Of a DNA stretch of 14,854 nt, positions 38-14,853 are shown piece after piece (position 1 is the first letter of the stretch; every line of letters begins with the position of its first letter). The translations under genes and the position numbers were made by a program. The notes below the pieces were generated by a model. It saw only the letters and a program-made list of their open reading frames with translations. It was not told the origin of the DNA and ran no database searches. This stretch comes from Calditrichaceae bacterium. GTDB taxonomy: Bacteria; Calditrichota; Calditrichia; Calditrichales; JBFXGD01. Where the stretch lies: positions 1-14,854 of the forward strand of contig JBFXGD010000079.1 of NCBI GenBank assembly GCA_050178385.1, given 5' to 3'.

Positions 38-478
38 TTATAATGAGGACAAGTGATTTCTCGCTAATGCGCGAACTGCCTGCACCATGGCCATAAGTCC
101 CATTCCTTTACCCATTGAAATGTTCTGCCGAAAGATTTTATATACGATTTCATCCGGGATCTCCGCGACTTCAGAGGCTGTAAGACCGGAGAGTGTTTTC
201 TCCAGAATGGCTGCTAATGCTTTCGCCGAAATTCCGGATGGATTTTCCACTGCAAAATATAGTTTAACCGTCCCGTCATCCTGGAGAATGGACCAGACAA
301 AGGCGTCCGATTCACAATAGGGGATTTTGTTCCTTTCCGGAAACGGACGTTTTGCAATTTCCGGAGGAACTTCCCGATATTGATCCGCATAGCTTATCAG
401 AAACTCTGCCCGATCGGTCAGATCATCCACAAGAGAAAGGTTTTCGATAAGTTCCGCCAGCTTTTCCGGCACGCGCAT
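38..478 (-). CDS. sufE: SufE-family sulfur acceptor / Fe-S metabolism-associated protein
   Basis: About 146 aa with the SufE layout: 'DRAEFLISYA' helix, conserved Cys in 'KIPYCESDAFVW' (codon 316..314; compare SufE GCQSQVW), 'ISAKALAAIL..LSGLTASEV..IP' and a C-terminal 'GKGMGLMAMV'. Start is ATG 478 or the adjacent TTG 481, after GGAAG. Lies about 30 bp downstream of the sulfurtransferase on the same strand. Confidence 0.88.
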   Translation of the reverse strand: MRVPEKLAELIENLSLVDDLTDRAEFLISYADQYREVPPEIAKRPFPERNKIPYCESDAFVWSILQDDGTVKLYFAVENPSGISAKALAAILEKTLSGLTASEVAEIPDEIVYKIFRQNISMGKGMGLMAMVQAVRALARNHLSSL

Positions 479-510
479 CAAATCTTCCAGGGATCGTTTG
501 ACTTCAACAC

Positions 511-1374
511 TTATTTTTCAATCGGAACGTTTACAAGATTCCCGTACTCCGTCCAGGATCCGTCATAATTCCGCACATGATTATATCCAATCAGATAGGT
601 GAGTACAAACCAGGATAAACTGCTTCGTTCACCGATCCTGCAATATGTGATAATGTCATTATCCGGTTTTAATCCCTGTTTGCGCAGATATATTTCCTTT
701 AAATCCTGTGAATCTTTAAACGTACCGTCTTCAGCATTCACCGCCATGCTCCATGGCACATTGGCCGCGCCCGGTATATGACCGCCTCTTAATGCCCCCT
801 CATTGGGATATCCTTCCATGTGCAACCGCGCGCCACTGTACTCTTCAGGACTGCGCACATCAACAAGCGGCAGTTTCTTTTCAACATGTTTCAGAACATC
901 ATCCCGGAAGGCGCGAATATTGTGGTCGCTGCGCTCACGCGCCGCGTACCTGCTCACAGAATATTTAGGGACATCTCTTGTCATGGGCCGCCGCTCCATT
1001 TCCCACTTAACACGGCCTCCATCCATGATCTTCATCCGGTTATGACCGAACAAACTGAACACCCAAAAGGCATAGCACGCCCACCAGTTATTCTTATCGC
1101 CATAAAAAACAGCCGTTGTGTCTTTTGTCATGCCAATTCTGGACATCAGTTCTTCAAACCCACCGCGGTGGATATAATCACGGCGTACCTGATCATTTAA
1201 ATCCGTCGTCCAGTCCACATGTACGGCGCCGGGTATATGCCCGGATGAGTACAACAGTGTGTCCTCATTTGATTCAATGATGCGTATCTCCGGATTTTTG
1301 AGATTTTCTTCCACCCAATCCGTTGACACCAGTACTTCGGGGTGTACATATCCCCGTTTATCTATGTTATTCAT
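511..1374 (-). CDS. sseA: Tandem-domain thiosulfate/3-mercaptopyruvate sulfurtransferase (rhodanese, SseA/CysA type)
   Basis: Rhodanese motifs 'LVSTDWV', '[10 protein letters not shown]', 'MDGGRVKW', '[12 protein letters not shown]', '[12 protein letters not shown]', active-site loop 'YCRIGERSS' (Cys codon 642..640) and '[12 protein letters not shown]'. ATG 1374 is preferred over TTG 1386 because GGAG lies 6 nt upstream of it. Confidence 0.95.
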
Positions 1375-1514
1375 AGGATACTCCAATTATTAATGGTTGA
1401 AACTGTATTAGGTTTAGCGAAGGAAAATGACGGAAAATTCCCCGGGATTACGGGTTATCTTACTAACTTAGTTGTGGATAGAAGAAATAATATATGAATT
1501 CTGAATTAAAGAAA

Positions 1515-2027
1515 TTACCCCAGGGACTGCCCGGCATATATCGTTTTACTCTCTGCCGGCCTGCCTGTGCTGTTTTTCATCCTGATATGGATTGTCTTTT
1601 CGATTTTCGCGTGTGTGACCCCATCCGAAGATTTGAGTTCGACCATGTATTTCCGGTCCGTCTTTGGATTAAGTTTCAAAAATTTAACAATCTCAGAGAT
1701 TTCATTTTCGTCCAGAGTGAAATCCGCGTACAGGGTCTCCCGTCCGGGTTTCACAAAACGAATTGAAGCGGCTTTATCCCATACAATGTAATCCGGGCCC
1801 AAAATCTTAAGAAGCATAATCATATAAATCGGATCAACTCCACCATACATGCTTCCGCCGAATATAGTATTGACATAATTTCTTGTTCTCATACTCAGGG
1901 GAATTTTAATCCGGATATTGGTCCAGTCACCTGAAATATGGAGGATACGCGCTCCCGTACCTCTGTATGCGGGAAAGATATTCATCCCCCATCTGAAAAT
2001 TTTTGTTTTGAATGTTTCGGATACCAC
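1515..2027 (-). CDS. DUF4442 / hotdog-fold (PaaI-like) putative acyl-CoA thioesterase
   Basis: 'FPAYRGTGARI', 'RTRNYVNTIFGGSMYGGVDPIYMIML' and 'VWDKAASIRFVKPGR' are typical of DUF4442 hotdog-fold proteins. GTG start is preceded by AGGA. Confidence 0.85.
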   Translation of the reverse strand: MVSETFKTKIFRWGMNIFPAYRGTGARILHISGDWTNIRIKIPLSMRTRNYVNTIFGGSMYGGVDPIYMIMLLKILGPDYIVWDKAASIRFVKPGRETLYADFTLDENEISEIVKFLKLNPKTDRKYMVELKSSDGVTHAKIEKTIHIRMKNSTGRPAESKTIYAGQSLG

Positions 2028-2138: not shown

Positions 2139-5100
2139 TCATTGCGGGTTTTTCTCATGATTTTCTAAAATAACCTTGCTGACCGTTTCGGCAAGTTCTT
2201 TAATATTGAAAGGCTTGGTTATCACACCCTTAAAACCATATTCCTCATAATTCGCCATCACCGGATCATTTGAATATCCACTCGTGACAATCGATTTCAG
2301 CCCCGGATCCATTTCTTTCATAATCCGGATCGTTTCCTTGCCGCCCATGCCGCCGGGAACGGTCAAATCCATCAAGACCAGGTCAATCGGTTTACCAGAT
2401 TCCCCGGCCAGCTTGTATTTTTCAATTGCTTCCCTGCCGTCAAAAGCGAAAACAACTTCATATCCTAATTTTTTGAGCATATTTCCGCATGCTTTCAGGA
2501 TAAGATCATCATCATCCATTACCAGAATGATTCCGCTGCCTTTGGTTATTTTTTCAGTACCGGGAATTACCGCTTTTTTGGTTGTTGCTACCGCCGGAAG
2601 ATAAATGATAAATTCCGTTCCTCTCCCAAGCTCTGATTTTACAGTGATATATCCCTGATGATTTTTTATAATCGAATGGGTGGTGGCAAGTCCCAGTCCG
2701 TTACCCTGCTGTTTTGTGGTAAAATAGGGATCAAATATTTTATCCAGATGATTCATGGGGATCCCAATCCCCTCGTCTCTTATGATCACTTTTATATACT
2801 TTCCGCTTTTTAGCAGACTGTTTTTATCTTCCTTAACATGCAGATTCTCCGCGATTATTTCCAGTTTACCCCCTTCCGGCATCGCCTGATCAGCATTTAT
2901 AACAAGATTATTCATAACCTGACTCAGCTGCCCTTCATCAACTTCAATAGACCACAGATTCTTCGGAATTGATATTTTTGACTTAACGTTGGATCCTCTC
3001 AACGCAAACTCAGATGTTTCTTTTATAAGCATTCCCACATCCGATAATTTTTTAACCGGCGCGCCACCGCGTGAAAAAGTCAATAACTGCTGGGTCAGAT
3101 CCTTTGCCCTCATTGTAGCTTTCTCGGCATCATCGAGCCGGTCGAATGTTTTTTCCCCGGGTTTGAGATTTAATTTGGCGAGCGAGATGTTTCCCAAAAT
3201 TGCCGTCAGCAGGTTATTAAAATCATGGGCTATTCCCCCGGCAAGCAATCCAACCGACTCGAGTTTTCTGTTTTTTAAAACTTCATTTTCAAGGAACCGA
3301 TGCTCGGTAATATCTCTGAAAACCAATACTATACCAAGTATTTTGCTGTCTCTATCTCTGATCGGCGCGCCGCTGTCGGCAATAATTCTCTCCGTCCCGT
3401 CTTTAGAAATTAACAGTGTCGAACTTGCAAGACCTACAATCGCCCCGGATTTCATAACTTTTTTAACCGGATTTTCGGCAGGTTTTTTTGTTTTTTCATC
3501 GATAATTCTGAATACTGCATGCAAGGGTTTTCCATGAGCCTCGGATTGTGTCCAGCCGGTCAGCTCCTCCGCCACATTATTCAGCATTACAATATTTCCA
3601 TGAATATCAGTGGTTATTACGGCATCACCAATGCTTCTCAATGTCACGGCCAAACGTTCTTTTTCCGCCGCCAAATCTTCTTCCACCTTTATCCGGTCAG
3701 TTATATCCACACAAACACCGTTTATCTGGCAGGTTATGCCATTTTCATCCAAAAGCGGTTCCGCTGTTTCATAAAGCCAGCGTATATTGCCGTCTTTTCT
3801 AATAACACGATATTCTCCGTGAGCCGCCTGACCATCTAAAAGGGCATTGATTGACGTTTTTACAAATCCAGAATCATCCGGATGAATGATTGAGGACCAG
3901 AGGCTTCCATTCGCGTTTAAAAATTCTTCTGATTTGTATCCCGTTATTCTGTATATATTCTCAGTATAAATGGAATAGGAAATATTTCTATTTTTATCTG
4001 AATTCGCGCTCCACAGAAAACCGTTAACGCTTGAAGTCAGATCGTCCATCCTTTGCTTATTGATGATGAGCTCATTTTCGATTTTCTCCCTCTCCCCGAC
4101 CATATAATTCGCTGATTCCGCCAGCACTTTAAATTCATCAAGCTTTAGCTTTCCCTCACTGATCTTTTTATGCTTGTGTGCCGCCTGCTTAAAGAAGGAT
4201 GTAAATATATCGAATTCGTCCTTAATTTTTTCCGAATAATAATTAGCAAGCAGCAAGGTCAGTGTGAGAACGAATATAAAAAGCAGCAAAATACTGATAA
4301 TGTGCTGCATCACCCCCATCTTCAGTTGCTTCTTATGCGCGGATATAACACTGTTTATGTCATCAAGATATACACCCGCGCCTATCATCCATTTCCAGTC
4401 ACTCACCGCTTTGATAAATGATATCTTTGGCGAATGTTGGCGGGTTGACGGTTTTAGCCAAGAGTAATGTATATATCCCCCTTCAGGATTTTCGGCCGCT
4501 TTTCTCTCTAACTGTACAACTTTTACGCCATTGGTGTCCGTCAATTCCCAGACATTATCTCCCGCTTTATATTTTTCCGAGTCAATGATCAGCGCGATTC
4601 CATCAAAAGTGTTAACAAAAACATACCCGTTTTCATCATAGCTAATCCTTGAAATTCGCTCAAGAACTTCTTTCTTAATATCATTTTCGACATTATCAAG
4701 GAATTCTCCGGTACCGATAAACCAGTTGAAAGGCTCAAAAATCTTTACAAACCCTATCTTGGGAGATGTATTTCCTGAGTTGTCATCCGGGCGGTGCCAG
4801 TAATACTTTCGATAAATTTCCTTTTTCTTTTTTATAAGCGCGATGATTTCTTTAGTCACATATTTTCCGTCTGCATCAACCCATTCCCCCAGACTGGTGC
4901 CCTCCACTGACGGTTCCGGAGGATATAACCGAGAGACGCCGTTCATATCCGTCACAATAAAATAACTCCTCCCACTGTTAAATCGGGCAGGCCTGAGAGC
5001 ATCAATGACCATTCTTTTTAAATCGCTATCCGGATACCGGTGTTTGTTTTGGTTATAAATATTGGAGGCTATGGCATGGGCCTGATAAACACGTTGTTTT

Positions 5101-5348
5101 AAATCAGCACGAAGATTTTTTTCATACACTGTCCTGTTATACTGAATATAGCTGATAACATTTTCAACCTGATCCCTGACCATTTTCTTTTGAGATTCTA
5201 TATATGTTCTTTCCAGCTCTTCCGACTGTTGTTCAAACTGACGGAATTCGGCTGTTATCCAGAAAAAGCCGATAGAAACAGACATAAGTATCAGCGCCGC
5301 GGTGGCGCCGGTCATAAAAATACGTCTGATATTGTTGTTTTTAAACAT
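2139..5348 (-). CDS. Membrane-bound hybrid sensor histidine kinase/response regulator (TM - 2x Cache_2 - TM - 2x PAS - HisKA - HATPase_c - REC; CckA-like transmitter)
   Basis: Two TM segments flank two Cache-like repeats ending 'WFIGTGEFLD' and 'WMIGAGVYLD'. PAS motifs: 'IIHPDD..GEYRVIRKDGNIRWL' and 'SIGDAVITTD..GTERIIADSGAPI'. H-box 'GGIAHDFNNLL' (His codon 3227..3225), N-box 'NLVINADQAM', G-boxes 'DEGIGI', 'FDPYFTTK', 'GNGLGL'. REC: 'VMDDD', 'LMDLTVPGGMGG', 'KPF'. ATG 5348 has GGAG 7 nt upstream, so it is preferred to TTG 5387. Confidence 0.95.
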   Translation of the reverse strand: MFKNNNIRRIFMTGATAALILMSVSIGFFWITAEFRQFEQQSEELERTYIESQKKMVRDQVENVISYIQYNRTVYEKNLRADLKQRVYQAHAIASNIYNQNKHRYPDSDLKRMVIDALRPARFNSGRSYFIVTDMNGVSRLYPPEPSVEGTSLGEWVDADGKYVTKEIIALIKKKKEIYRKYYWHRPDDNSGNTSPKIGFVKIFEPFNWFIGTGEFLDNVENDIKKEVLERISRISYDENGYVFVNTFDGIALIIDSEKYKAGDNVWELTDTNGVKVVQLERKAAENPEGGYIHYSWLKPSTRQHSPKISFIKAVSDWKWMIGAGVYLDDINSVISAHKKQLKMGVMQHIISILLLFIFVLTLTLLLANYYSEKIKDEFDIFTSFFKQAAHKHKKISEGKLKLDEFKVLAESANYMVGEREKIENELIINKQRMDDLTSSVNGFLWSANSDKNRNISYSIYTENIYRITGYKSEEFLNANGSLWSSIIHPDDSGFVKTSINALLDGQAAHGEYRVIRKDGNIRWLYETAEPLLDENGITCQINGVCVDITDRIKVEEDLAAEKERLAVTLRSIGDAVITTDIHGNIVMLNNVAEELTGWTQSEAHGKPLHAVFRIIDEKTKKPAENPVKKVMKSGAIVGLASSTLLISKDGTERIIADSGAPIRDRDSKILGIVLVFRDITEHRFLENEVLKNRKLESVGLLAGGIAHDFNNLLTAILGNISLAKLNLKPGEKTFDRLDDAEKATMRAKDLTQQLLTFSRGGAPVKKLSDVGMLIKETSEFALRGSNVKSKISIPKNLWSIEVDEGQLSQVMNNLVINADQAMPEGGKLEIIAENLHVKEDKNSLLKSGKYIKVIIRDEGIGIPMNHLDKIFDPYFTTKQQGNGLGLATTHSIIKNHQGYITVKSELGRGTEFIIYLPAVATTKKAVIPGTEKITKGSGIILVMDDDDLILKACGNMLKKLGYEVVFAFDGREAIEKYKLAGESGKPIDLVLMDLTVPGGMGGKETIRIMKEMDPGLKSIVTSGYSNDPVMANYEEYGFKGVITKPFNIKELAETVSKVILENHEKNPQ

Positions 5349-5658
5349 TGGGGACTCCAGAATTGGGCCTGATCTGAGTTCTTCCAAATTTATTAAATAT
5401 ATTATTATGATATGTGATAAATTTAATTTCTCAAAGTAAAAAATAAAATATTACATCCAGGTCAATGCATTTGTCGGAATAAAGCGTCTTTTTACCTACC
5501 AGGCGCATATAAAATAAATGTTGTTTATGCGTATATATTTTGGGAATTTGTAGTATTTCCGGGAATTTCTGTGAACTAAGATATTGCATTCTCGTTTAAT
5601 TTCCGAATTGATCGGCGTGATCCAGGGTGATTACAACATTTTTTAAGGATTGCATTTT
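5349..5658. promoter_or_regulatory. AT-rich divergent intergenic region expected to contain promoters for the hybrid kinase (-) and the hydrolase A/NTT unit (+)
   Basis: 310-bp non-coding, AT-rich gap between divergent starts. Contains an 8-bp direct repeat GGGAATTT (5542-5549, 5561-5568) and RBS AAGGA at 5645-5649. No individual -35/-10 pair can be assigned confidently. Confidence 0.55.
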
Positions 5659-6576
5659 ATGAAAATAATCTATCTTTTAATTACTGCTTTATTAGTTTTT
5701 ATCCCGCAAGGCTTTACTCAGTCAGTTAAAGATGAGCCCCTTCCTTACTCCATCGCTGACAAGGAAATAAAACCATTAAGAAAACTGGTTGACAAGGATT
5801 TTCAGAATGAATTGGAAAAGCAGCTTCGAAAAGACAAGACCTGGGCCAGGCTGATCGATAAAAAGAAAATGTCCGTCGGTCTTGTTGATATCAGTGATCC
5901 CCATCATGTCCGTTTTGCGAGGGTTAATGGCGACTTGATGATGTATGCGGCAAGTCTGCCAAAACTGGCAATCCTGCTGGGTTCAGCTCAGGCGCTTGAA
6001 GACGGTACACTTGAAGAGACGCCGGAAATATTAAATGATATGCGCCTAATGATTAGTAAGTCAGATAATTCGGCGGCAACGCGGATGATTGACCGGATTG
6101 GGTTTAAACAAATCCAGTCTGTCCTCATGAATCCAAAGTATCAGCTCTACGCGCCGGATCTGGGGGGCGGTTTGTGGGTCGGTAAACGCTACGCGAAATT
6201 GGGAAAACGCTATCCTGATCCTTTAATGGGTCTTAGCCATGGCGCTACCGCCACACAGGTTTGCCGGTATTATTATTTGCTGGCGTTTGGGAAACTCGTT
6301 AATCGGGAACGTTCAGCTCAAATGCTGGATTTCCTGGCGGATCCTGAACTTCACCATAAATTTGTGCATAGTCTCGACGAACTCGTTCCCAATGCAAGGA
6401 TTTACAGAAAATCAGGTACCTGGCGGAACTGGCATTCAGATTCTGTGATGGTCTGGGGACCGGAATGGCGGCGTTATATACTTGTGGGACTTGTCGAAGA
6501 TCCTCATGGAGAGGCCATTCTTAGAAATTTGTTATTGACGGCGGAGATTGTTTTAAAATCCGGTAAAAAAATCTAA
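5659..6576 (+). CDS. Exported serine hydrolase of the class A beta-lactamase/PBP fold (Beta-lactamase2-like), hydrolase A
   Basis: Signal peptide MKIIYLLITALLVFIPQGFT. SxxK 'AASLPK' (5953-5964), SxN 'SDN' (6061-6069), KTG-type 'KSG' (6409-6417). ATG 5659 is 9 nt after AAGGA. No ExxLN omega-loop motif seen. Confidence 0.88.
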   Translation: MKIIYLLITALLVFIPQGFTQSVKDEPLPYSIADKEIKPLRKLVDKDFQNELEKQLRKDKTWARLIDKKKMSVGLVDISDPHHVRFARVNGDLMMYAASLPKLAILLGSAQALEDGTLEETPEILNDMRLMISKSDNSAATRMIDRIGFKQIQSVLMNPKYQLYAPDLGGGLWVGKRYAKLGKRYPDPLMGLSHGATATQVCRYYYLLAFGKLVNRERSAQMLDFLADPELHHKFVHSLDELVPNARIYRKSGTWRNWHSDSVMVWGPEWRRYILVGLVEDPHGEAILRNLLLTAEIVLKSGKKI

Positions 6577-6595: not shown

Positions 6596-9472
6596 ATGGT
6601 GGCCAGAAATAACGTTTCCAGTGTAAAATTCATCGATATTGTTGAAAAGATACTAAACGAAACTTTTGATATACGGCACGGTGAGGGAAGACGGGCCCTT
6701 ATGATGTGGGGCTATATTTTTCTGATCATCTCCTCCCTGCTCATTGTAAAACCCGTCGTTATTTCTATGTTCCTCACCCGGTTCGGCGTTGAACAGCTGC
6801 CTTTTGTATTTATTCTGGTGGCTGTGTTCGCGGCTGCCATATCATCGCTTTATTCAGGACTGCTCAAAAAAGTGCCGGTTCATCATTTAATTGTAAAGAC
6901 TCTTAAAATTTCGATTACTTTTTTATTCATATTCTGGTCGTTTCTGCAGTTAAATTTGCTGCCAGGCTGGATCATATACATTTTTTATATATTTGTCGCC
7001 ATATTTGCCGTCATCTCCAGTTCTCAGTTCTGGATACTCGCAAATGTGATTTTTAACGCCAGGGAGGCAAAGCGCTTATTCGGATTTATCGGGTCCGGAG
7101 CCATTGCCGGAGGTATATTCGGCGGATATCTTACAAATTTTCTTGCACCTGTCATTAGCAGCGAAAATCTGATCTTTATCTGTATCGCGTTTTTATTGTT
7201 GTGTATTCCGATCACAAATAATTTATGGAAGGAGTATTTTAAGAACGCCGAACACCGCAAACTATACCGTGAACATCCGGTAGCCGTGACGGCAGCTCAT
7301 CCGGTCAGGATAATCAGGCAGTCAAAACATCTTATTTATCTGGCAAGCATTGTCGGAACAGGCGTTCTGGTCGCCAAACTTATTGAATACCAGTTCGGGG
7401 CCATCGCCGCCAGAGAAATCACCAATGAAGATCAGTTAACCGCGTTCTTCGGATTCTGGCTTTCCAATCTGAATATCGCCTCCCTCCTGATCCAGCTGTT
7501 TGTCACTCGCCGGGTTGTGGGTGTTTTTGGAGTGGGAACATCATTGTTTTTTCTGCCGGTAGGAATTCTCTTTGGAGCGGTGACCATCTTTATCACTCCC
7601 GTGCTGTGGGCGGGAATATTTATTAAAATAACAGACGGCAGTCTTAAGAACTCCATAAACAAGGCCGGGATCGAACTGCTCGCCCTGCCTATTCCGGTGG
7701 GAATTAAGAATCAGGCAAAATCGTTCATCGATGTTTTTGTGGATAGTTTCGCGACAGGTATCGGCGGCTTGCTTCTCATCTTTTTGACATATGGATTTGA
7801 TTTCACCATCAGACAGATCAGTCTTATTATTATTTTATTGCTTTCTCTATGGATTTATCTTGTCACCAGGATTAGAAAAGAGTATATCAATTCATTCCGC
7901 TTAAAGATTGAGCCCAATAAAGTACACTCAAATTCCGGTTTGCCTGATATTCAAAACGAGTCCGTATATGGAGGATTCATCAAAATCCTTGAGGGAAAAA
8001 ATGAATCTCAGATTCTCCAAATTCTCAAAATGGTAAAACCGGTTCAAAATGACCGCCTGATTCCCTGTTTTCAACGACTTCTAAACCATCATTCCGGAGA
8101 GATAAAACTGGAAGTATTGAGAAATATCTATTTCTATAAACACCTGGATCTTTCCGATGAAGTCATATCTCTGGCTGATGATCCGGATATGGAAATAAAA
8201 ACAGAGGCCATGCATTATCTGTTTCAAAGCGCCGGAGGGAACAAAATTGACAAACTTAATTCGTTCCTGCAGTCGCCCGATATTACCATTCGCGGAGCCG
8301 CCCTCCTTTGCGCGGCAAGAGAAAGCCGCAATAATCCGGAATTAAGACAGCAATTCAGAGTTAAGGAATCGGTTGACGAACTAATGAAAGATTTGCGGCT
8401 TCAGACCAATAAATCATTGACGAAATCATTAAAAATTATTGCTTCCCGGGTCATTGGCGCCGCGGATATTTCCGAATTGTATCCATACCTTCATATCCTG
8501 TTGAGCGATCGTGATTTTGATATCTTACAAGCCGCCATATTAGCCGCCGGGTCGAGCAAAAACAAGGAATTTCTACCGGTTCTGATCCGGATGCAGAAAA
8601 AGAAAAGATTATGGAAATACACCTATGAAGCTCTCACATCTTTTGGGCCAGATATCCTGGATGATCTGAATGAGCATTTAAATAATCCGTATGTAGACAG
8701 AAATATTCGATTAAGCATTCCCGCTCTGATCGCCAATTTCCGTATTCAAAAAGCGGTTGATGTTCTGGTGAAAAATTTGCAGCTTAAAGACGCGCTTATT
8801 CGCTATGAAGTCATCAATGCCTTATACGACCTGAGACTAAATTCATCCGGACTCAATTTTCATGTCCCGAACATCGTAAACCGGATTTTTGCAGAGGCCC
8901 GCGACTATGTAAACACTCTCGCGTTTCTGTATTTGCAGGTGCAGGCAGATTCAAAAATTGGTGCCCGGACTGCGCCTGATCCCAATCAGACCCAATTACA
9001 CGAAGCCAGAAATTTGCTGATAAAGGCGCTGGAAGATCGCCTGGACAACAATCTGGAAAGAATTTTCCGGTTACTCGGATTAAAATATCCGCCTGAAGAT
9101 ATCGAGAATGTGTACAGCGGAATCACCAGCAGCAAACCTGATGTCCGTGTCAACGCGGTTGAGTTTTTGGATAATGTCCTTGAAAGCGATCTGAAAAAGA
9201 TCATCATACCGATTGTTGAAACGACGATGATCAGTTCTGTGATTGATAAAACGCTTGAGCAGTTCGGCTTAAAAATCAAATCAGAGCACGAATGCTTAAC
9301 GACACTTCTTACAAGCGAAGATTCGACATTGCAAATCCGCACCTTATACCTTGTCAGCCAATTAAAGGACGAGCAGTATCTTCCATACATTGGTTCGTTG
9401 GTAAACAGCCCGGATTCAAAAGTTCGGAAAATGGCCGGTTTCGCGTTAAAACATATCGGTATCGACAGGTAA
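6596..9472 (+). CDS. NTT/TLC (Npt1/Npt2-like, MFS-fold) nucleotide transporter fused to C-terminal HEAT repeats
   Basis: The first ~430 aa have about 12 hydrophobic segments with NTT-like motifs 'LLIVKP', 'QFWILANVIFNAREAKRLFGFIGSGAIAGGIFGG', 'KLIEYQF', 'SLKNSINKAGIELLALPIP' and 'AKSFIDVFVD'. The C-terminal ~520 aa is helical with HEAT signatures ('DPDMEIKTEAM', 'SPDITIRGAAL', 'DALIRYEVINAL', 'PDVRVNAVEFL', 'SPDSKVRKMA'). 19 bp downstream of hydrolase A. Confidence 0.88.
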   Translation: MVARNNVSSVKFIDIVEKILNETFDIRHGEGRRALMMWGYIFLIISSLLIVKPVVISMFLTRFGVEQLPFVFILVAVFAAAISSLYSGLLKKVPVHHLIVKTLKISITFLFIFWSFLQLNLLPGWIIYIFYIFVAIFAVISSSQFWILANVIFNAREAKRLFGFIGSGAIAGGIFGGYLTNFLAPVISSENLIFICIAFLLLCIPITNNLWKEYFKNAEHRKLYREHPVAVTAAHPVRIIRQSKHLIYLASIVGTGVLVAKLIEYQFGAIAAREITNEDQLTAFFGFWLSNLNIASLLIQLFVTRRVVGVFGVGTSLFFLPVGILFGAVTIFITPVLWAGIFIKITDGSLKNSINKAGIELLALPIPVGIKNQAKSFIDVFVDSFATGIGGLLLIFLTYGFDFTIRQISLIIILLLSLWIYLVTRIRKEYINSFRLKIEPNKVHSNSGLPDIQNESVYGGFIKILEGKNESQILQILKMVKPVQNDRLIPCFQRLLNHHSGEIKLEVLRNIYFYKHLDLSDEVISLADDPDMEIKTEAMHYLFQSAGGNKIDKLNSFLQSPDITIRGAALLCAARESRNNPELRQQFRVKESVDELMKDLRLQTNKSLTKSLKIIASRVIGAADISELYPYLHILLSDRDFDILQAAILAAGSSKNKEFLPVLIRMQKKKRLWKYTYEALTSFGPDILDDLNEHLNNPYVDRNIRLSIPALIANFRIQKAVDVLVKNLQLKDALIRYEVINALYDLRLNSSGLNFHVPNIVNRIFAEARDYVNTLAFLYLQVQADSKIGARTAPDPNQTQLHEARNLLIKALEDRLDNNLERIFRLLGLKYPPEDIENVYSGITSSKPDVRVNAVEFLDNVLESDLKKIIIPIVETTMISSVIDKTLEQFGLKIKSEHECLTTLLTSEDSTLQIRTLYLVSQLKDEQYLPYIGSLVNSPDSKVRKMAGFALKHIGIDR

Positions 9473-9482
9473 ATCATTCAAA

Positions 9483-10730
9483 CTATTTTGAAATGATCCG
9501 GTCGATAAACGTCGCCAGCGATTGATGCTCCACCGCTGAATTTTTCTTTAATACATTTGACATAAGCGCCACAAGATAGACACGGCCGGCCGGATGCTCG
9601 ACGATGGCAACCGAGTTCATATAGTTTTCAACATTTCCCATATATTTCCCGCACTTGAAATCGGGTTCCACTTTGCAGCGGTACTGGCTTCCCGATTTAA
9701 AATATACCGCCGCGTCCGTTAACGCCGGACTCGAGGCGTAACGGATTCGCTTTGCGGTCATATACATCATTCTTTTGATCTCCAGGCTTGACCATTCATC
9801 CACTATTTTCCCCCGTTCCAGCGCGATGAGATATTTTAGCAACGCCGTGGGTGTTCCGTAACTTCCTCCGCCACCCGGAACAAGTTTTTTGCCTGTTTGC
9901 GTAAAAAAGCTGCCCAGCTGCCATTCATTCTGCTCTATCCCCATAACCCTTAACGGATCATTCACCGTCGACATGGCTATGGCGCTCAATTCGCTTTTTG
10001 AAGTTTTTTCAAAAAAATGCTTTTCCCACTCCGCACTCGCAGGATAATTTTTCCCAAACGCCCTCATCAAAAGAACTTCTTTCCAAACCACGCTTGCCGC
10101 TGAATTCGCGCTGGCTGAGATCATGTGATCCACCCATTCATAAAGAGAAAATGTATCCCCTTCTTTTATCGGTCTCCAGAATGAAGCCTTGGTCTCCGGA
10201 TTAAAAAACGGGACGTCATGATGATCGGTGAGTATCCATTTATCCGCGACAACCATTCGTGTGCGCAGCAGCTCCCGTCTTTTTTCCGGGGAGACCGGGT
10301 AGATTTTTTGTAATTCCGTAAACAGCCCCGCTAAAATCGCCAGCTTTCCCACACTGCCGGGCGCGAATCTGTTATCAGCCTGACGCTTTGCGAAACGCGT
10401 CGGTTTACCCGGCGTTATCTCAAGAAGCGCCAGTGAATAACTTTCATCGCGGTTCGGAAACAGCGCGTCAATCCGTTTTTGTAATTCCGGATCTACCTTC
10501 GGAAGAGCATCGAGACTATCACCCCTGGCGTTTAACAGGTTCAGGGCGATTTCCGCGTAAGGCTTCCGGCCTCCCGGTGGAGGCAATGTCCCCTTGATTT
10601 GTCCCTCGCTTATCATACTCAGTTTTAACAGCCGTCTTATTCCTGTCCATTGATAGCCGTCAATCGGATAACCCGAGAGACCATCAAAAAGGATCATAAA
10701 AAGCAGTAAAATCCCAATTTTTATTTTCAT
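9483..10730 (-). CDS. Exported serine hydrolase of the class A beta-lactamase/PBP fold, hydrolase B
   Basis: Signal peptide MKIKIGILLLFMILFDGLSG. SxxK 'PGSVGK' (10355..10344), SxN 'SAN' (10112..10104), 'YFKSGS' (KSG 9698..9690), helix start 'GTPTALLKYL'. RBS GGGGAG lies in the 33-bp gap after the dikinase. Confidence 0.82.
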   Translation of the reverse strand: MKIKIGILLLFMILFDGLSGYPIDGYQWTGIRRLLKLSMISEGQIKGTLPPPGGRKPYAEIALNLLNARGDSLDALPKVDPELQKRIDALFPNRDESYSLALLEITPGKPTRFAKRQADNRFAPGSVGKLAILAGLFTELQKIYPVSPEKRRELLRTRMVVADKWILTDHHDVPFFNPETKASFWRPIKEGDTFSLYEWVDHMISASANSAASVVWKEVLLMRAFGKNYPASAEWEKHFFEKTSKSELSAIAMSTVNDPLRVMGIEQNEWQLGSFFTQTGKKLVPGGGGSYGTPTALLKYLIALERGKIVDEWSSLEIKRMMYMTAKRIRYASSPALTDAAVYFKSGSQYRCKVEPDFKCGKYMGNVENYMNSVAIVEHPAGRVYLVALMSNVLKKNSAVEHQSLATFIDRIISK

Positions 10731-10763: not shown

Positions 10764-13697
10764 CTACTTAAGTGTATCGCTCAGTGATATCCGGATATTT
10801 TTGATTTTTGGATCCATATTCCGGAGATATTCCGAAGATCGCGCCTTTTTGTTTTCCACAAACGGCCTGACCTGGAACAACCAAATTTGCCCGTCTTTAA
10901 ATCCCAGTTCCACGTCAAACGGTCCTTTTGATTCAATACCGGGGGTTCCCGGGAGTTTCTTTTTAATCTCATCGGCAAATGCGCGAAGCATGATCAGTTC
11001 ATTGTTATCCAGCACCGGTTTGTTTAAAGACATGATTGCTTTCGCGGTTCCTCCGGATGCGGGTAGCGTTGTGCTGAGAGTTTCCCTTGACGGAGACAAT
11101 AATTGAATGGTACCGTCACTTCTCAGAAGATACGATTCGGCCGCCTGACCCTCCACAGCCCCGCCTGCTCCCCGGTTAAAGGCGATGGTTACATCATCCG
11201 CATTCCCTGAAGTCACGCCGGTTGTGATCATCACGCCAGATTTTTCAACATCGACCGTTGGTATAATGAGAATAGACGGATATACATTTTCCGGATTTAG
11301 CAGAAATTTCTGCCTCCATTTATAACTCCGTTCCGTGAACGGAGAAGCCCAGACATCGCGGATAGCCTGAAAAATTTTTTCTTCTTCAACCACATTAAAA
11401 ACAGTCAGATTGAGTCCCGCGCCCGTAAAATCCTTCAAATCTTCCATATTGGTGTCACTGCGGATAAAAACCGGTACACTACCTATTTCCCTACCCAGAA
11501 TATCCGCAAATCCCGAGTTCATCTTTTGTAAAAACTCCTGTGAAAAATTAATTTTCTGGATGGCGTCACGAAGCGCTTCGAGACGCTTTAAGACCATTGA
11601 ATCAATCTGATCAGGCGTCATACCGGTTTTATTCTCCACGGATGCATTCTCAAATGTCCCCTGTAAATACTGCCAGTAAGTCAATTCACCACCCGGCATG
11701 ATTTGATCCAAGTGCTGTCGGAAAATTCCGAATGGAATCACAAGACCTTCCACAACCTGCTGCGGGAACATACTTTTCAACTGACCAAGATTTGCAGCTT
11801 TCGGGCCGCAAATTTTTCCCGAATCAAGTGCCCTGAGTTTTCGAAGATTTAAAATATCGGTCTGATTCAAATTGATTTTCCCGGTGGGAACCTTAATTCT
11901 TTCCTCTTTCCTTTTTTTTATCTGAATAAGTGACTTTTCCTTATCCGTCATTTTTTCGGCCGGTTTCATCAACACGCTGCCACCCGGTGAAACCGCGTAA
12001 AACACATCTTTTCCCGAATAAACAGATAAATCGGCCAAATTTTGTTCCGACAAAACCGCGTTCGGGATGCCAAGATTCCGCGCCAGCAGCTGCACATGCG
12101 AAACAAGATTGCCCTCGGAAACAGTCGCGATTCCCGCTACCGGCTTCATATCCGCCGGCGGCCGCATAAGAATATAAATTTTATCCGCCGCGAACTGAAT
12201 ATCATCCGGCGCCCCGGGAACAACTTCCAGCTTCCCAAAAGCAAACCCCGGATTGAGACCGGTAATTTTATTCTGATTGCTTATCCCCATTACATTGTTG
12301 CTCTGCCCGGCGTAAATGGACAACCTATCCGACAGATCGCCTGCAATTTCTCCGAGAGGAAGCAGAACAGAACCACGGATGCGGTCATCGGTAAATCCTT
12401 TTGCCAGCGGTTCGAAAGCGCCGAACAAAGAAACGACCGATTCAAAATTAGTCCGCACCATTCCCGCGCTCCATTCCACTGCGCGTCTTGAGATTTCGCT
12501 TTTTCTTCTGAAATCATCCAGGCTCATATCCTCTGCGCCGCCGGACGACAATAATAATGGTTCAATTTGTTCCCATTCCCATTTTTCAATAAAACCGCAG
12601 CCTGCCGCGGCTTTTGTAAGATAGTAATTTTTCTCAAGCAGCCCGCCGATGGTCTCAGGCATCCATAAATGAATTTCACTAAAAAGTATCATTTCGAGTT
12701 CGTTTGAAAGATCAATGATTGCCAGACGCTGATCCGGCCTTGACACAGAAAGCAGATTCGCCCTGATCTCCCACAGGAGTGAAGAAATATCTTTTATCCT
12801 GTTATTCTGAAGATCCTGACTGTTCTTTTTACCGTATGCCGCGATCAGCTTTTTAGTCCGCGCGGACAGAATGTTCGATGTTGGTAATTTTTCGATATAT
12901 TTGCTGAGTGTCTGGAGGTCTGTAGGCTTGAACGCCAGTTCTAGTTCACTCTCCAGGTTCTGCAGCAGCTCGGCCATCATCACGGGAATTTTGTTCTTGT
13001 ACCGCGTTTTGAAATTTCTGACCCTTTCCAGATCTCCCGCATCCGGCTGACCGTGTAATTTCACCCGCAAATCCATAAAGGTGGGCAGCGAATCGCCAAG
13101 AGTTTTTGAGAGATCCCGAATATTATTCCAGTGATTATAATTCGCCTTATGCGGAATATCCTTCGCGGCCTGACGCAATAAAAAGAAACGCGTATCAATA
13201 ATTTCACCACTGGAAACCAGCCATTTAAGGAAATTCACTCCCCAGTATTCTTCGTCTTCTACCTGAATAGCGCCCCTGTAGTACCGCGCTTTGCGAAAAA
13301 TCCAGCCGTCATCGCCGCGCTGAAGGTATCTCTCCATCATATACTGTTTTAATCTGGAATTCCGGTTTGATTCATCCCAGACATCTTCAAACTTCGCACC
13401 GGCAAGAATCTGCCCCAAATATATCCCGTTATTTTTTGCAAGTCTTGTAACAATATCTTTGTGAATTGCATGCTGGATGCCGCCGGGTTCAGGACATCTT
13501 TCCTTTGGCGGAATGATACTGCCATCCGGACAAAACCAGCGAATCGCCTGATAAGGGCCGCGTTCATCTTTTTTAAATGACTGAATTAATCTTGCGATTT
13601 CGGCAGATTCAATTGACTGTGAGTAAAGATTGACGGTAAAAACTAAAAACAGAAACTGAAAAAGAAGCAGAAGAGGAATGAGGACTTTTGATTTCAT
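10764..13697 (-). CDS. Signal-peptide-bearing dikinase of the PEP-utilising/PPDK superfamily with GWD/PWD-like domain order (unknown N-domain - phospho-His domain - ATP-grasp nucleotide-binding domain)
   Basis: N-terminal hydrophobic signal MKSKVLIPLLLLFQFLFLVFTVNLYS. Phospho-His motif 'EGNLVSHVQLLARNLGIP' (His534, codon 12098..12096). PPDK_N/ATP-grasp motifs 'CGPKAANLGQL' (Lys633), 'GLVIPFGIF', 'VFIRSDTNMEDLKDFTGAGL', 'AIRDVWAS', 'GGAVEG' and 'DVELGFKDGQIWLFQVRP'. No PEP/pyruvate TIM-barrel domain is present. Confidence 0.88.
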   Translation of the reverse strand: MKSKVLIPLLLLFQFLFLVFTVNLYSQSIESAEIARLIQSFKKDERGPYQAIRWFCPDGSIIPPKERCPEPGGIQHAIHKDIVTRLAKNNGIYLGQILAGAKFEDVWDESNRNSRLKQYMMERYLQRGDDGWIFRKARYYRGAIQVEDEEYWGVNFLKWLVSSGEIIDTRFFLLRQAAKDIPHKANYNHWNNIRDLSKTLGDSLPTFMDLRVKLHGQPDAGDLERVRNFKTRYKNKIPVMMAELLQNLESELELAFKPTDLQTLSKYIEKLPTSNILSARTKKLIAAYGKKNSQDLQNNRIKDISSLLWEIRANLLSVSRPDQRLAIIDLSNELEMILFSEIHLWMPETIGGLLEKNYYLTKAAAGCGFIEKWEWEQIEPLLLSSGGAEDMSLDDFRRKSEISRRAVEWSAGMVRTNFESVVSLFGAFEPLAKGFTDDRIRGSVLLPLGEIAGDLSDRLSIYAGQSNNVMGISNQNKITGLNPGFAFGKLEVVPGAPDDIQFAADKIYILMRPPADMKPVAGIATVSEGNLVSHVQLLARNLGIPNAVLSEQNLADLSVYSGKDVFYAVSPGGSVLMKPAEKMTDKEKSLIQIKKRKEERIKVPTGKINLNQTDILNLRKLRALDSGKICGPKAANLGQLKSMFPQQVVEGLVIPFGIFRQHLDQIMPGGELTYWQYLQGTFENASVENKTGMTPDQIDSMVLKRLEALRDAIQKINFSQEFLQKMNSGFADILGREIGSVPVFIRSDTNMEDLKDFTGAGLNLTVFNVVEEEKIFQAIRDVWASPFTERSYKWRQKFLLNPENVYPSILIIPTVDVEKSGVMITTGVTSGNADDVTIAFNRGAGGAVEGQAAESYLLRSDGTIQLLSPSRETLSTTLPASGGTAKAIMSLNKPVLDNNELIMLRAFADEIKKKLPGTPGIESKGPFDVELGFKDGQIWLFQVRPFVENKKARSSEYLRNMDPKIKNIRISLSDTLK

Positions 13698-13897: not shown

Positions 13898-14170
13898 TTA
13901 TTCCACATCACCCCGGTCATCGCAATAACATGAATCACCCTGAAATTTATCCCAAAGCTCTTTGAAGGATGTTAATTCATCAATATGCCCGGAAATCGCT
14001 TTCATTCCGGCATACTTTTTACCATCATCATCCAGGACAGGCAGGCTCTGAAATTTTTGCCGATCTTCAAGCCCGGACAGGACAGTGTCGTATGCGATAA
14101 CCAGTTCATCGAGCCGGTCCTGAAGATCGTCGCATTCAGAACAGTTTTTATGCCGGTATAATGTGATCAT
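13898..14170 (-). CDS. Small glutaredoxin/thioredoxin-fold protein with CxxC and a C-terminal CxC tail
   Basis: 'MITLYRHKNCSECDDLQDRL' gives the beta1-CxxC-helix pattern (CSEC 14143..14132). cis-Pro-type motif 'LPVLDDDGK'; tail 'FQGDSCYCDDRGDVE'. RBS AGGGA upstream. Confidence 0.75.
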   Translation of the reverse strand: MITLYRHKNCSECDDLQDRLDELVIAYDTVLSGLEDRQKFQSLPVLDDDGKKYAGMKAISGHIDELTSFKELWDKFQGDSCYCDDRGDVE

Positions 14171-14439: not shown

Positions 14440-14853
14440 TTATTCAGGAAATGTAAGAGATGATGTTTGATAAAAGCCCACCGTTAAATCCCTGTTGCCG
14501 GTTTGGGCAATTAAATAATCTGTGTATTCATTTAGATTATTTGTCGAACGCAGAGAATATGGCAACGGCTGATTTGAAAAAGCATCATCTAAACTATGAA
14601 GCAATGTCGCGGGCGGATACGGATTCTGAAAAGCCGGTGATTCCTTCGTGGAACGATGAATGATGTTCTTCGCCTTGTGAAATGCGCCGGAGGCCAGGCT
14701 TCTGCCTCCCCGGTAAATGGATTTTACAGAGTAGCCAAAGATAAAATCGATAATTCCGGAGGTCAGATATTCATTATATATATCAGCCATCATCGGGAAC
14801 CGGACCGGGACCGTCGGAAACAGAGGATGATTCCCAATCCCATTTAGGATGGA
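14440..14853 (-). CDS. 3' end of an unidentified protein, truncated by the window edge
   Basis: The frame of the 14440..14793 ORF stays open to the window end (…SILNGIGNHPLFPTVPVRFPMMADIYNEYL…) and ends in tandem TAA TAA. Same strand as the downstream genes. No family recognised. Confidence 0.55.
   Translation of the reverse strand, partial: SILNGIGNHPLFPTVPVRFPMMADIYNEYLTSGIIDFIFGYSVKSIYRGGRSLASGAFHKAKNIIHRSTKESPAFQNPYPPATLLHSLDDAFSNQPLPYSLRSTNNLNEYTDYLIAQTGNRDLTVGFYQTSSLTFPE

Follow-up and report, generated by a model that had tools for sequence, protein, structure and literature searches.

We describe here a gene for a 977-residue protein on a 14,854-nt contig of a Calditrichaceae bacterium from the phylum Calditrichota (JBFXGD010000079.1 in assembly GCA_050178385.1; the entire contig is called the window in the following). 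The best explanation that we can offer is that this protein is an exported “substrate, water dikinase” resembling glucan, water dikinase (GWD), that it belongs to a four-gene envelope module, and that its ATP is supplied by the carrier of this module, a fusion of a nucleotide-transporter (NTT) domain with HEAT repeats. To this reading as a whole we assign a probability of about 0.5, and its parts differ in strength: by its domains and conserved residues the protein is very probably a dikinase, a functional link between the four genes is probable to nearly the same degree, and an export of ATP by the NTT-HEAT carrier has a chance slightly below even.

A preliminary description of the window had dealt with the span 10764..12400, which corresponds to residues ~433-977 and thus to the C-terminal 545 residues of the dikinase. 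It had proposed a bacterial relative of the starch dikinases GWD and phosphoglucan, water dikinase (PWD) that phosphorylates a sugar or polymer. Two features that are central to our reading, the Sec signal peptide and the conserved four-gene module, were absent from it.

Domain order and catalytic residues

The dikinase consists of a helical N-terminal domain, a small His-swivel domain and a C-terminal ATP-grasp domain, in this order (Table 1). The ATP-grasp domain is recognized by Pfam as PPDK_N at residues 630-956 (E 1.3e-26, 94.1 bits versus a gathering score of 27), and PPDK_N matches are found in all 32 members of the family alignment A1. The His domain gives weaker signals: the PEP-utilizers mobile domain is matched at residues 516-548 below threshold (E 0.019, 15 bits versus a cut-off of 23.1), and this generic model touches 29 of the 32 family members, again below cut-off, with a best value of 0.0024. 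In an alignment with phosphoenolpyruvate (PEP) synthase (PPS, 8a8e), the ATP-grasp domain (chain 104-370) corresponds to residues 699-957 of the query and the His domain (chain 384-460), weak on its own with an i-Evalue of 2.4, to residues 479-552; as the His domain of 8a8e thus aligns ahead of the ATP-grasp domain, the domain order of the dikinase is permuted relative to PPS. An AF2 model calculated from 32 relatives (pLDDT 82.8) agrees with these borders: residues ~30-465 are helical, 475-580 form a small alpha/beta domain, and ~600-960 make up the ATP-grasp domain. Foldseek matches of this model are confined to the ATP-grasp domain and include rifampin phosphotransferase (RPH, 5hv1, E 1e-13), HpeI (9goj), PPS (2ols) and PPDK. 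A PEP/pyruvate-binding barrel was not found in the dikinase by the Pfam scan at E up to 10.

Conservation within the 32-member alignment is highest where the chemistry is to be expected. H534, K633 (in GPK), R746-D753 (RSDTNMED), E930, Q942 and R944 are invariant, and so are S533, Q536-L538 and N541-G543 around the catalytic histidine. K633, R746, E930, Q942 and R944 are residues that we take to be the counterparts of the ATP and Mg ligands of PPDK, and the entry titles “1jde K22A” and “2dik R337A” fit this assignment. As the invariant residues correspond to these presumed ligands, the enzyme looks active. The five sequence strings on which the preliminary description had built the likeness to GWD are all present in the open reading frame (ORF) where it had placed them, namely NLVSHVQLLARN (residues 530-541, containing H534), FTDDRIRGS (residues 435-443, 12395..12369), GLVIPFGIF (residues 651-659), RSDTNMEDL...AGL (residues 746-762) and AIRDVWASPFTERSY (residues 778-792).

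The family is large. In a word-indexed search, 397 of the scored candidates qualified as relatives with E values up to 1e-3, and the best 120 of these are 867-1008 aa long and 51-91% identical to the dikinase across nearly the full length; their sources include Bacteroidota, KSB1, Calditrichota, Balneolales, Latescibacterota, Deferribacteres and others. When one genome per prokaryotic species was scanned, 599 stretches gave a match and 593 of them could be confirmed; the total is estimated at ~870 stored DNA stretches. The matches of an exhaustive profile search at E up to 1e-30 fall into 394 clusters of 50% identity, and the cultured genera that encode family members include Labilibaculum, Arenibacter, Flagellimonas, Aquimarina and Pricia. 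As the family is highly conserved, the observation is not a matter of chance. The relatives are named “phosphoenolpyruvate synthase”, “PEP/pyruvate-binding domain-containing protein” or “hypothetical protein” in databases, and a mislabelling as PPS had indeed been anticipated by the preliminary description.

Probable export of the dikinase

In 31 of the 32 aligned family members, a signal-peptide-like segment is evident by eye, the exception being P0019, which starts later. By a simple rule that looks in the first 45 residues for a hydrophobic 11-mer with Lys or Arg ahead of it, a signal peptide is assigned to 109 of 118 full-length core relatives, and in 86 of these 109 the hydrophobic core is shortly followed by [AGS]Q. 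In Bacteroidota, Gln is the new N-terminus of signal peptidase I substrates according to the Q-rule (PMC5837995, PMC10653852; available text). The N-terminal domain contains the cysteines C56 and C68 as an invariant pair, which fits a disulfide that could be formed in an oxidising compartment. Moreover, fusions to fn3, cadherin, Calx-beta, PPC or META domains occur among distant PPDK_N relatives, and in an Atlas cluster 62% of the members carry a Por_Secre_tail, the tail for type IX secretion. With these signals, export of the dikinase is quite likely and well supported, though not proven.

A conserved four-gene module

The dikinase gene is followed by a gene for a serine enzyme of 415 aa, and this pair converges with a second pair, in which the gene of a 308-aa serine enzyme lies 19 bases upstream of the NTT-HEAT gene. 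Related loci have the layout seen in the window. Among 80 such loci from several phyla, tblastn detected the 415-aa enzyme in 72, the NTT-HEAT fusion in 62 and the 308-aa enzyme in 56, and the misses partly reflect loci that end near the dikinase (e.g. L024, L033, L042, L047). An unsupervised clustering of 895 ORFs recovered the four module families in 78, 71, 58 and 55 loci, and the next family reached 10. The association is also seen at the genome level: among 86 species genomes of the phylum Calditrichota, the dikinase occurs in 12 and NTT-HEAT in 21, all 12 are among the 21, and the dikinase is absent from all 65 genomes that lack NTT-HEAT. Where the dikinase stands apart from its partners (L017, L020, L023, L063, L066), an NTT-HEAT homologue is encoded elsewhere in all five genomes (E 1e-266 to 3e-82).

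The carrier is related to nucleotide transporters. With the single sequence, phmmer finds the chloroplast ADP,ATP carrier NTT1 (9j3j) at E 4.1e-5, and with a 29-member profile (A5) 9j3j is matched at E 1.1e-9 and the ADP,ATP carrier 9j3n at E 2.7e-9, over ~315 positions. The N-terminal part has ~11-12 hydrophobic spans, and the C-terminal half matches HEAT_2 (E 3.8e-21). According to Major, Embley and Williams (2017, PMC5381601), NTT-HEAT fusions form a monophyletic clade that is widespread in bacteria and has no known function; the protein of the window shares with them the nucleotide-transporter-type membrane domain and the C-terminal HEAT repeats. The available text of that paper reports no link to a dikinase, whereas the fusion of the window is part of a conserved module with exported enzymes. 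Several genomes of the phylum carry two to four NTT-HEAT copies.

Both serine enzymes have the complete motif set of the penicillin-binding/beta-lactamase superfamily. In the 415-aa enzyme, S126/K129, S207/N209, K345-S-G347, C352 and C360 do not vary among 31 orthologues, and in the 308-aa enzyme, S99/K102, S135/N137 and K251-S-G253 are invariant in 30 orthologues. An informative PDB sequence match was found for neither, and the class A beta-lactamase model (NCBIfam bla_class_A) gave 12.3 bits versus a cut-off of 200 for the 415-aa enzyme and no match for the 308-aa enzyme. As SxxK, SxN and KSG are invariant and the class A test failed, we assign the two enzymes to the wider superfamily only. 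Orthologues of both have signal peptides, and lipoboxes occur in some orthologues of the 308-aa enzyme. By the signal peptides and the NTT match, three of the four module products are thus predicted to be exported and the fourth is an inner-membrane homologue of nucleotide carriers.

Table 1. Features of the window (positions on the 14,854-nt contig; residue numbers refer to the respective protein)
Feature	Position	Strand	Description
Dikinase gene (P0001)	10764..13697	minus	977 aa; ORF and translation; full-length relatives 51-91% identity; 32-member alignment A1
Sec-type signal peptide	13617..13697	minus	residues 1 to ~27: MKSK, hydrophobic core, ...YSQS (predicted)
N-terminal helical domain	12288..13613	minus	residues 29-470; presumed acceptor-binding domain; invariant C56 and C68
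Helix KGFTDDRIRGS	12369..12401	minus	residues 433-443, with D437, D438 and R441
His-swivel domain	11958..12275	minus	residues ~475-580; weak PEP-utilizers match and alignment to PPS His domain
Codon of catalytic H534	12096..12098	minus	inside the His-swivel domain
ATP-grasp (PPDK_N) domain	10818..11864	minus	residues ~612-960; PF01326, E 1.3e-26
Exported serine enzyme (P0002)	9483..10730	minus	415 aa; Pfam Beta-lactamase2, E 3.5e-7; 33 bases downstream of the dikinase
NTT-HEAT fusion (P0003)	6596..9472	plus	958 aa; membrane part ~30-440, HEAT repeats ~470-958
Second exported serine enzyme (P0125)	5659..6576	plus	305 aa from ATG 5659, 308 aa from TTG 5650; Beta-lactamase2, E 1.5e-16
Hybrid sensor kinase	2139..5387	minus	1082 aa; dCache, two PAS, HisKA, HATPase, receiver
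DUF4442 gene	1515..2027	minus	
Double-rhodanese gene	511..1386	minus	
SufE-like gene	38..481	minus	
Small ORF upstream of the dikinase	13898..14170	minus	no Pfam match
Small ORF upstream of the dikinase	14440..14853	minus	no Pfam match

The other genes of the window are not kept with the module. The sensor kinase gene adjoins it, and weak matches of 23-24% identity to this kinase were found in 2 of the 80 loci. The SufE-like, double-rhodanese and DUF4442 genes and the two small ORFs were found in none of them. Promoter and terminator scans gave counts equal to those of shuffled sequences. In a distant lineage, the adjacency of dikinase and serine enzyme recurs in a metagenomic ORF of 1274 aa (P0140), in which a distant family member (34% identity) is joined to a 415-aa-type enzyme at the mature N-terminus of the latter. 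We do not regard P0140 as a natural fusion, and it is probably a frameshift artefact, with the last ~120 residues of the dikinase missing and the tail out of frame.

Relation to GWD and PWD

For a comparison with GWD, a degenerate phospho-His pattern was used to scan metagenome contigs, which gave 56 loci, among them four with plant-like exons bearing ...DVLSHVSVRARNGK..., one (L111) with a plant-like ORF of 582 aa and a CFATC motif, and five with long uninterrupted ORFs. Six ORFs make up the GWD-type profile A6. Pfam detects GWD1_pHisD in all six (1e-31 to 1e-48), the CBM45-type domain Ig_N_CWD1 in four and PPDK_N in five, and the six served as positive control for GWD1_pHisD (PF22973, cut-off 27 bits). 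The GWD strings quoted in the preliminary description were compared with GWD-type sequences: ...DVLSHVSVRARNGK... occurs in the loci L095, L104, L108, L133 and L111, and the A6 consensus contains LFSEEVVRGGS, ALPFGVF and AIKRVWASKWNERAY. No paper was found by a text search with the quoted His motif.

The family of the window and these sequences can be aligned colinearly. With hhalign, A1 and A6 match over 368 columns (P0001 433-868 versus 706-1085) with 22% identity, Prob 97.8 and E 8.4e-13, so that the likeness goes beyond the generic domains, as had been suggested. The alignment starts exactly at GFTDDRIRGS / LFSEEVVRGGS and continues through VSH / VSH, GPKAANL, IPFGIF / LPFGVF and VWASP / VWASK. 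Together with Pfam, the 8a8e alignment and the AF2 model, it bears out the order of helical domain, His domain with H534 and C-terminal ATP-grasp domain that had been recognized as that of GWD. The motif pairs put forward in the preliminary description hold up for the most part; the exception is the RSDTNMEDL pair, in which the motif of the window lies, opposite a gap in the profile alignment, at the canonical place before VWAS, whereas GWD1-type rows have RSDSNGEDL..AGAGL after VWAS, so that the two are not positionally equivalent (the pair had been drawn with PWD, and the compared set holds GWD1-type rows and no PWD).

The start of the alignment deserves attention because D437, D438 and R441 are aligned there to E710, E711 and R714 of A6. 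D437 and R441 are invariant in A1, and D438 is conserved to at least 90%. In potato GWD1, according to the available text of a JBC study of 2026 (PMC13553574), a central domain of 444 residues with 20 helices is connected to the His domain by a four-residue link, E900, E901 and R904 lie on a helix facing H992 and are candidate catalytic helpers, and the conserved V989 and L990 precede H992. In the dikinase, L531 and V532 precede H534, and the spacing from R441 to H534 is 93 residues, as compared to 88 from R904 to H992 in the potato enzyme (PMC13553574). In pattern and spacing, the D437/D438/R441 helix thus corresponds to that of E900/E901/R904.

The likeness nevertheless remains partial, as judged from the sequences. 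With GWD1 (EC 2.7.9.4, plants, algae and bacterial orthologues), the dikinase shares the order of helical acceptor domain, His domain and C-terminal ATP-grasp domain, the acidic-acidic-x-x-Arg helix, V/L-S-H and the ATP-grasp domain in one colinear profile alignment, but it has neither a CBM45-type domain nor the CFATC-type redox cysteines after the histidine, and it is predicted to be exported, whereas GWD1 is plastidial or cytoplasmic. PF22973 gave no match on the dikinase at E up to 10; 3 of the 32 family members were hit at E up to 1, the best at 0.055 and thus below cut-off, and nothing was found in the own genome of the window or in the 86 genomes of the phylum. Residues 29-470 (A4) showed no profile similarity to A6 in hhalign (Prob 0.3), and the N-domain of the dikinase is thus without detectable relation to that of GWD1. 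A GWD catalytic domain was not among the PDB matches of the dikinase, and the GWD1 structure 9HA9 was not among the sequence or fold matches, possibly being absent from the searched copies. Plant GWD and PWD were not reached by searches either: a profile of the C-terminal 599 aa gave 22 matches among longer proteins, with no GWD, and in an exhaustive search of representatives the best 150 of 7483 matches (E up to 1e-3) belonged to the extended family only. As leads only, the Atlas gave for residues 260-600 a eukaryotic GWD1_pHisD cluster as top feature match (0.91), and a model of a Streptophyta GWD1_pHisD+PPDK_N cluster with TM 0.65 over 306 residues.

Bacterial proteins with the full GWD1 architecture (Ig_N_CWD1 + GWD1_pHisD + PPDK_N) are numerous, with 2115 matches at E up to 1e-3. 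All three domains are present in each of the 120 best of these 2115 that were listed, the named sources are metagenome-assembled genomes labelled Verrucomicrobia or Candidatus Acidoferrum (Acidobacteriota), and the JGI name of these proteins is alpha-glucan, water dikinase. By their architecture, the nearest bacterial relatives of GWD are these other proteins and not the family of the window. The preliminary description had expected a bearing on the origin of GWD and PWD, and this expectation is weakened, as the numerous bacterial proteins of full GWD1 architecture are closer to GWD. Genes of this architecture are found on densely coded metagenome contigs without introns (L119:3866-7426 (-), L135:3857-6898 (-), and also L146, L102 and L098). 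On L119, a starch/glycogen-synthase-type gene is followed by the GWD1 gene and by a second GWD1_pHisD+PPDK_N protein that is fused to a xylose-isomerase-like TIM barrel, and on L135 a separate TIM-barrel gene occupies the equivalent place. The gene neighbours of these bacterial orthologues differ from those of the dikinase, and the starch-synthase-type neighbour of L119 has no counterpart in the window.

Phylogeny of the ATP-grasp domain

A tree of the ATP-grasp domain was calculated with IQ-TREE (LG+C20) from 42 rows and 369 columns. The rows comprise 8 of the core family, 8 of a sister family, 4 distant “extracellular” relatives, 5 GWD-type sequences, 9 classical proteins with N-terminal ATP-grasp (2 PPS, 2 RPH-like, 5 PPDK) and 8 other proteins with C-terminal ATP-grasp. 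Left out were L152 (in two parts, with a TGA in frame), L159 (a fragment of 219 aa), P0147 (matched only in part) and L162, L163, L165 and L167, which are family members cut by the edge of their locus. The PPS rows were taken from genomes outside the 41 genomes of the phylum that had been searched for a true PPS; in these 41, a search with TIGR01418 at E up to 1e-100 found none.

One clade (UFBoot 97 / SH-aLRT 90) unites the GWD-type, extracellular and family rows, in a tree with long branches, for which the tool warns of long-branch joins, and in which PPS and RPH-like proteins have few rows. Among the GWD-type rows there is one partial ORF of plant-like type (L111), but neither a full plant GWD nor a PWD. 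Inside the clade, the order (GWD-type, (extracellular group, family)) is not settled by its support of 70/29. A forced clade of family and PPS is 26.1 log-likelihood units worse and is rejected with p-AU 0.006, with the limit that the group used for the constraint was named after the tree had been seen. A phylogeny of this domain had been one of the checks suggested in the preliminary description, and the family indeed groups with GWD-type sequences and not with PPS. The refuting outcomes named there have not come up.

The four extracellular relatives beside the family in this tree (P0142-P0145, 1349-2567 aa) have extracellular-type architectures, in which the PPDK_N ATP-grasp domain is combined with fn3, cadherin, Calx-beta, PPC, PKD-like and purple-acid-phosphatase/metallophosphoesterase domains. 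The genome of the window itself (G000) encodes on contig C288 (L002:151-2826 (+)) a protein of 892 aa that combines a receiver domain with DUF5752 and a PPDK_N domain at the C-terminus and in which no His domain was detected; this protein and six similar ones of other genomes make up a separate clade (100/100).

A possible mechanism and the points against it

How might such a module work? The C-terminal ATP-grasp domain would bind ATP, as can be expected from the chemistry of the family, and its beta-phosphate would be transferred to H534 with release of AMP and phosphate. The His domain would then swing over to the helical N-domain, where the D437/D438/R441 helix may aid the transfer of the phosphate to a hydroxyl group of an acceptor that is held in this domain. 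Our best guess for the acceptor is a molecule of the cell envelope or the periplasm on which both penicillin-binding-type enzymes would act as well. The composition of the module suggests that ATP is fed into the periplasm: the NTT-HEAT carrier would export ATP, probably in exchange for an adenine-nucleotide product. What the analysis shows are the order of the domains, the conservation of the catalytic residues, the export signals, the synteny and co-occurrence of the genes and the homology of the carrier to NTTs; in which direction the carrier works, that ATP is its substrate and what accepts the phosphate are inferences.

Several points weigh against this mechanism. To our knowledge, there is no accepted precedent for ATP in the periplasm. 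The signal peptides were assigned by simple rules and not by a trained predictor, and the N-domain, from which a hint to the acceptor could have been expected, has neither a PDB sequence match nor a clear PDB fold match. The carrier does not match the Pfam TLC family at E up to 10, and the NTTs that have been characterised import nucleotides (PMC5381601, available text). In 5 of the 80 loci, the partners are absent beside the dikinase despite several kb of flank. The co-occurrence counts overstate the independence of the cases, as genomes of one phylum are kin. Finally, with a limit of E 1e-50, the dikinase is missing from 9 of the 21 NTT-HEAT genomes of the phylum (G054, G055, G063, G066, G067, G068, G074, G079, G085); the carrier is therefore not dedicated to the dikinase, and it probably serves further partners too.

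Alternative explanations

If the dikinase is compared to RPH (5hv1, 5fbs), with which it would share the His-swivel chemistry on a hydroxyl group of an acceptor other than pyruvate, a periplasmic detoxification comes to mind, in which a small-molecule toxin or antibiotic is inactivated by the dikinase with the aid of two beta-lactamase-like hydrolases. The best solved structural match of the ATP-grasp domain is indeed RPH 5hv1, and Pfam recognizes Beta-lactamase2 in both neighbours. However, RPH has the order ATP-grasp, substrate domain, His domain (PMC4844700, available text), which differs from that of the dikinase, and it is cytoplasmic; the dikinase reaches 60.8 bits versus a cut-off of 999 with the RPH model NF041857, its N-domain has no match to the rifampin-binding domain, and the family lies away from the RPH-like rows of the tree. 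The failed class A beta-lactamase test speaks against hydrolases of this kind, and a fixed gene order across several phyla with 50-60% identity fits a housekeeping function better than a resistance island. We therefore consider detoxification unlikely.

The preliminary description had favored a glucan, water dikinase for glycogen, starch or another glycan, and the GWD-like domain order, the colinear alignment with GWD-type sequences, the grouping of the ATP-grasp domain with GWD-type rows and the retained acidic-acidic-x-x-Arg helix would all be compatible with this. A sugar or polymer as acceptor nevertheless finds no support. Pfam detects neither CBM45 (PF23166 Ig_N_CWD1) nor CBM20 nor any other carbohydrate-binding family in the dikinase or in the 32 family members, a profile comparison shows no relation of the N-domain to GWD-type sequences, and by ORF clustering no gene of glycan metabolism is conserved in the 80 dikinase neighbourhoods; a bacterial GWD orthologue adjoins a starch-synthase-type gene and the dikinase gene does not. 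In addition, glycogen is cytoplasmic, whereas the dikinase is predicted to be exported. A glycan dikinase thus appears slightly less probable still than a detoxifying enzyme.

Improbable to the same extent is an arrangement in which the N-terminal segment merely anchors the dikinase, the catalytic domains face the cytoplasm and NTT-HEAT imports nucleotides. Such an arrangement would dispense with ATP in the periplasm and would agree with the import function of the characterised NTTs (PMC5381601, available text), but it does not account for the Lys or Arg before the hydrophobic core and the cleavage-type sites of a small residue and Gln after it in 86 of the 118 relatives, for the conserved cysteine pairs in the dikinase and the 415-aa enzyme, for the export of both serine enzymes, some of them lipoproteins, or for the relatives that are fused to extracellular domains.

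Could the acceptor be a protein? The dikinase might phosphorylate one of its serine-enzyme partners, like Enzyme I phosphorylates HPr, and two observations could be taken as hints: the gene of the 415-aa enzyme is closely linked to that of the dikinase in an operon (72 of 80 loci), and the ORF of P0140 carries both. P0140 looks like a frameshift artefact, however, and nothing else speaks for a protein acceptor, which we regard as a quite remote solution. A complex prediction with residues 29-600 of the dikinase and the mature 415-aa enzyme scored 0.00 versus a mark of 0.32 and carries no weight either way.

Even less probable is a salvage of nucleotides or energy, in which the dikinase runs in reverse in the periplasm and makes ATP from AMP, phosphate and a high-energy donor for import by NTT-HEAT. 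NTTs do import ATP (PMC5381601, available text), and this would suit such a pathway. The reactions of PPS and PPDK are, in general, reversible, but no plausible extracellular high-energy donor is known, the data point to none, and the two serine enzymes would be left without a role.

The reading as PPS, which is suggested by the database names of relatives, is already refuted, as the PEP/pyruvate domain is missing: PPS and PPDK, which have the ATP-grasp domain and the swivelling phospho-His chemistry in common with the dikinase, show the order ATP-grasp, His domain, PEP/pyruvate barrel, whereas the dikinase is permuted, has no barrel, stands apart from them in the tree with the PPS clade rejected, and matches TIGR01418 over the ATP-grasp domain only, with 80.3 bits versus a cut-off of 739.75.

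Implications

In full texts, among which most subscription journals are not covered, we found no paper on an exported dikinase, on the function of NTT-HEAT or on a deliberate supply of ATP to the periplasm, and if the idea at the level of the module could be demonstrated, it would represent a new category. Explanations of envelope machines start from the assumption that there is no ATP in the periplasm. With a widespread exported ATP-grasp dikinase that is tied to a homologue of ATP/ADP carriers, ATP in the periplasm becomes directly testable. The module also offers a first functional context for the NTT-HEAT fusions, which were described in 2017 and have had no known role since then (PMC5381601, available text). 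For the dikinase family itself, with its estimated ~870 stored DNA stretches, the common mislabel as PPS is corrected, and with regard to the evolution of starch dikinases, the GWD-like domain order turns out to be old and diverse in bacteria.

On a larger scale, we tentatively propose that in many diderms (Bacteroidota, KSB1, Calditrichota, Ignavibacteriota, Desulfobacterota and others) ATP is exported by NTT-HEAT and used by the dikinase to phosphorylate a component of the envelope, which would then be processed by two penicillin-binding-type enzymes. If this is true, it would be the first function for the NTT-HEAT clade, and the rule of an ATP-free periplasm would be overturned.

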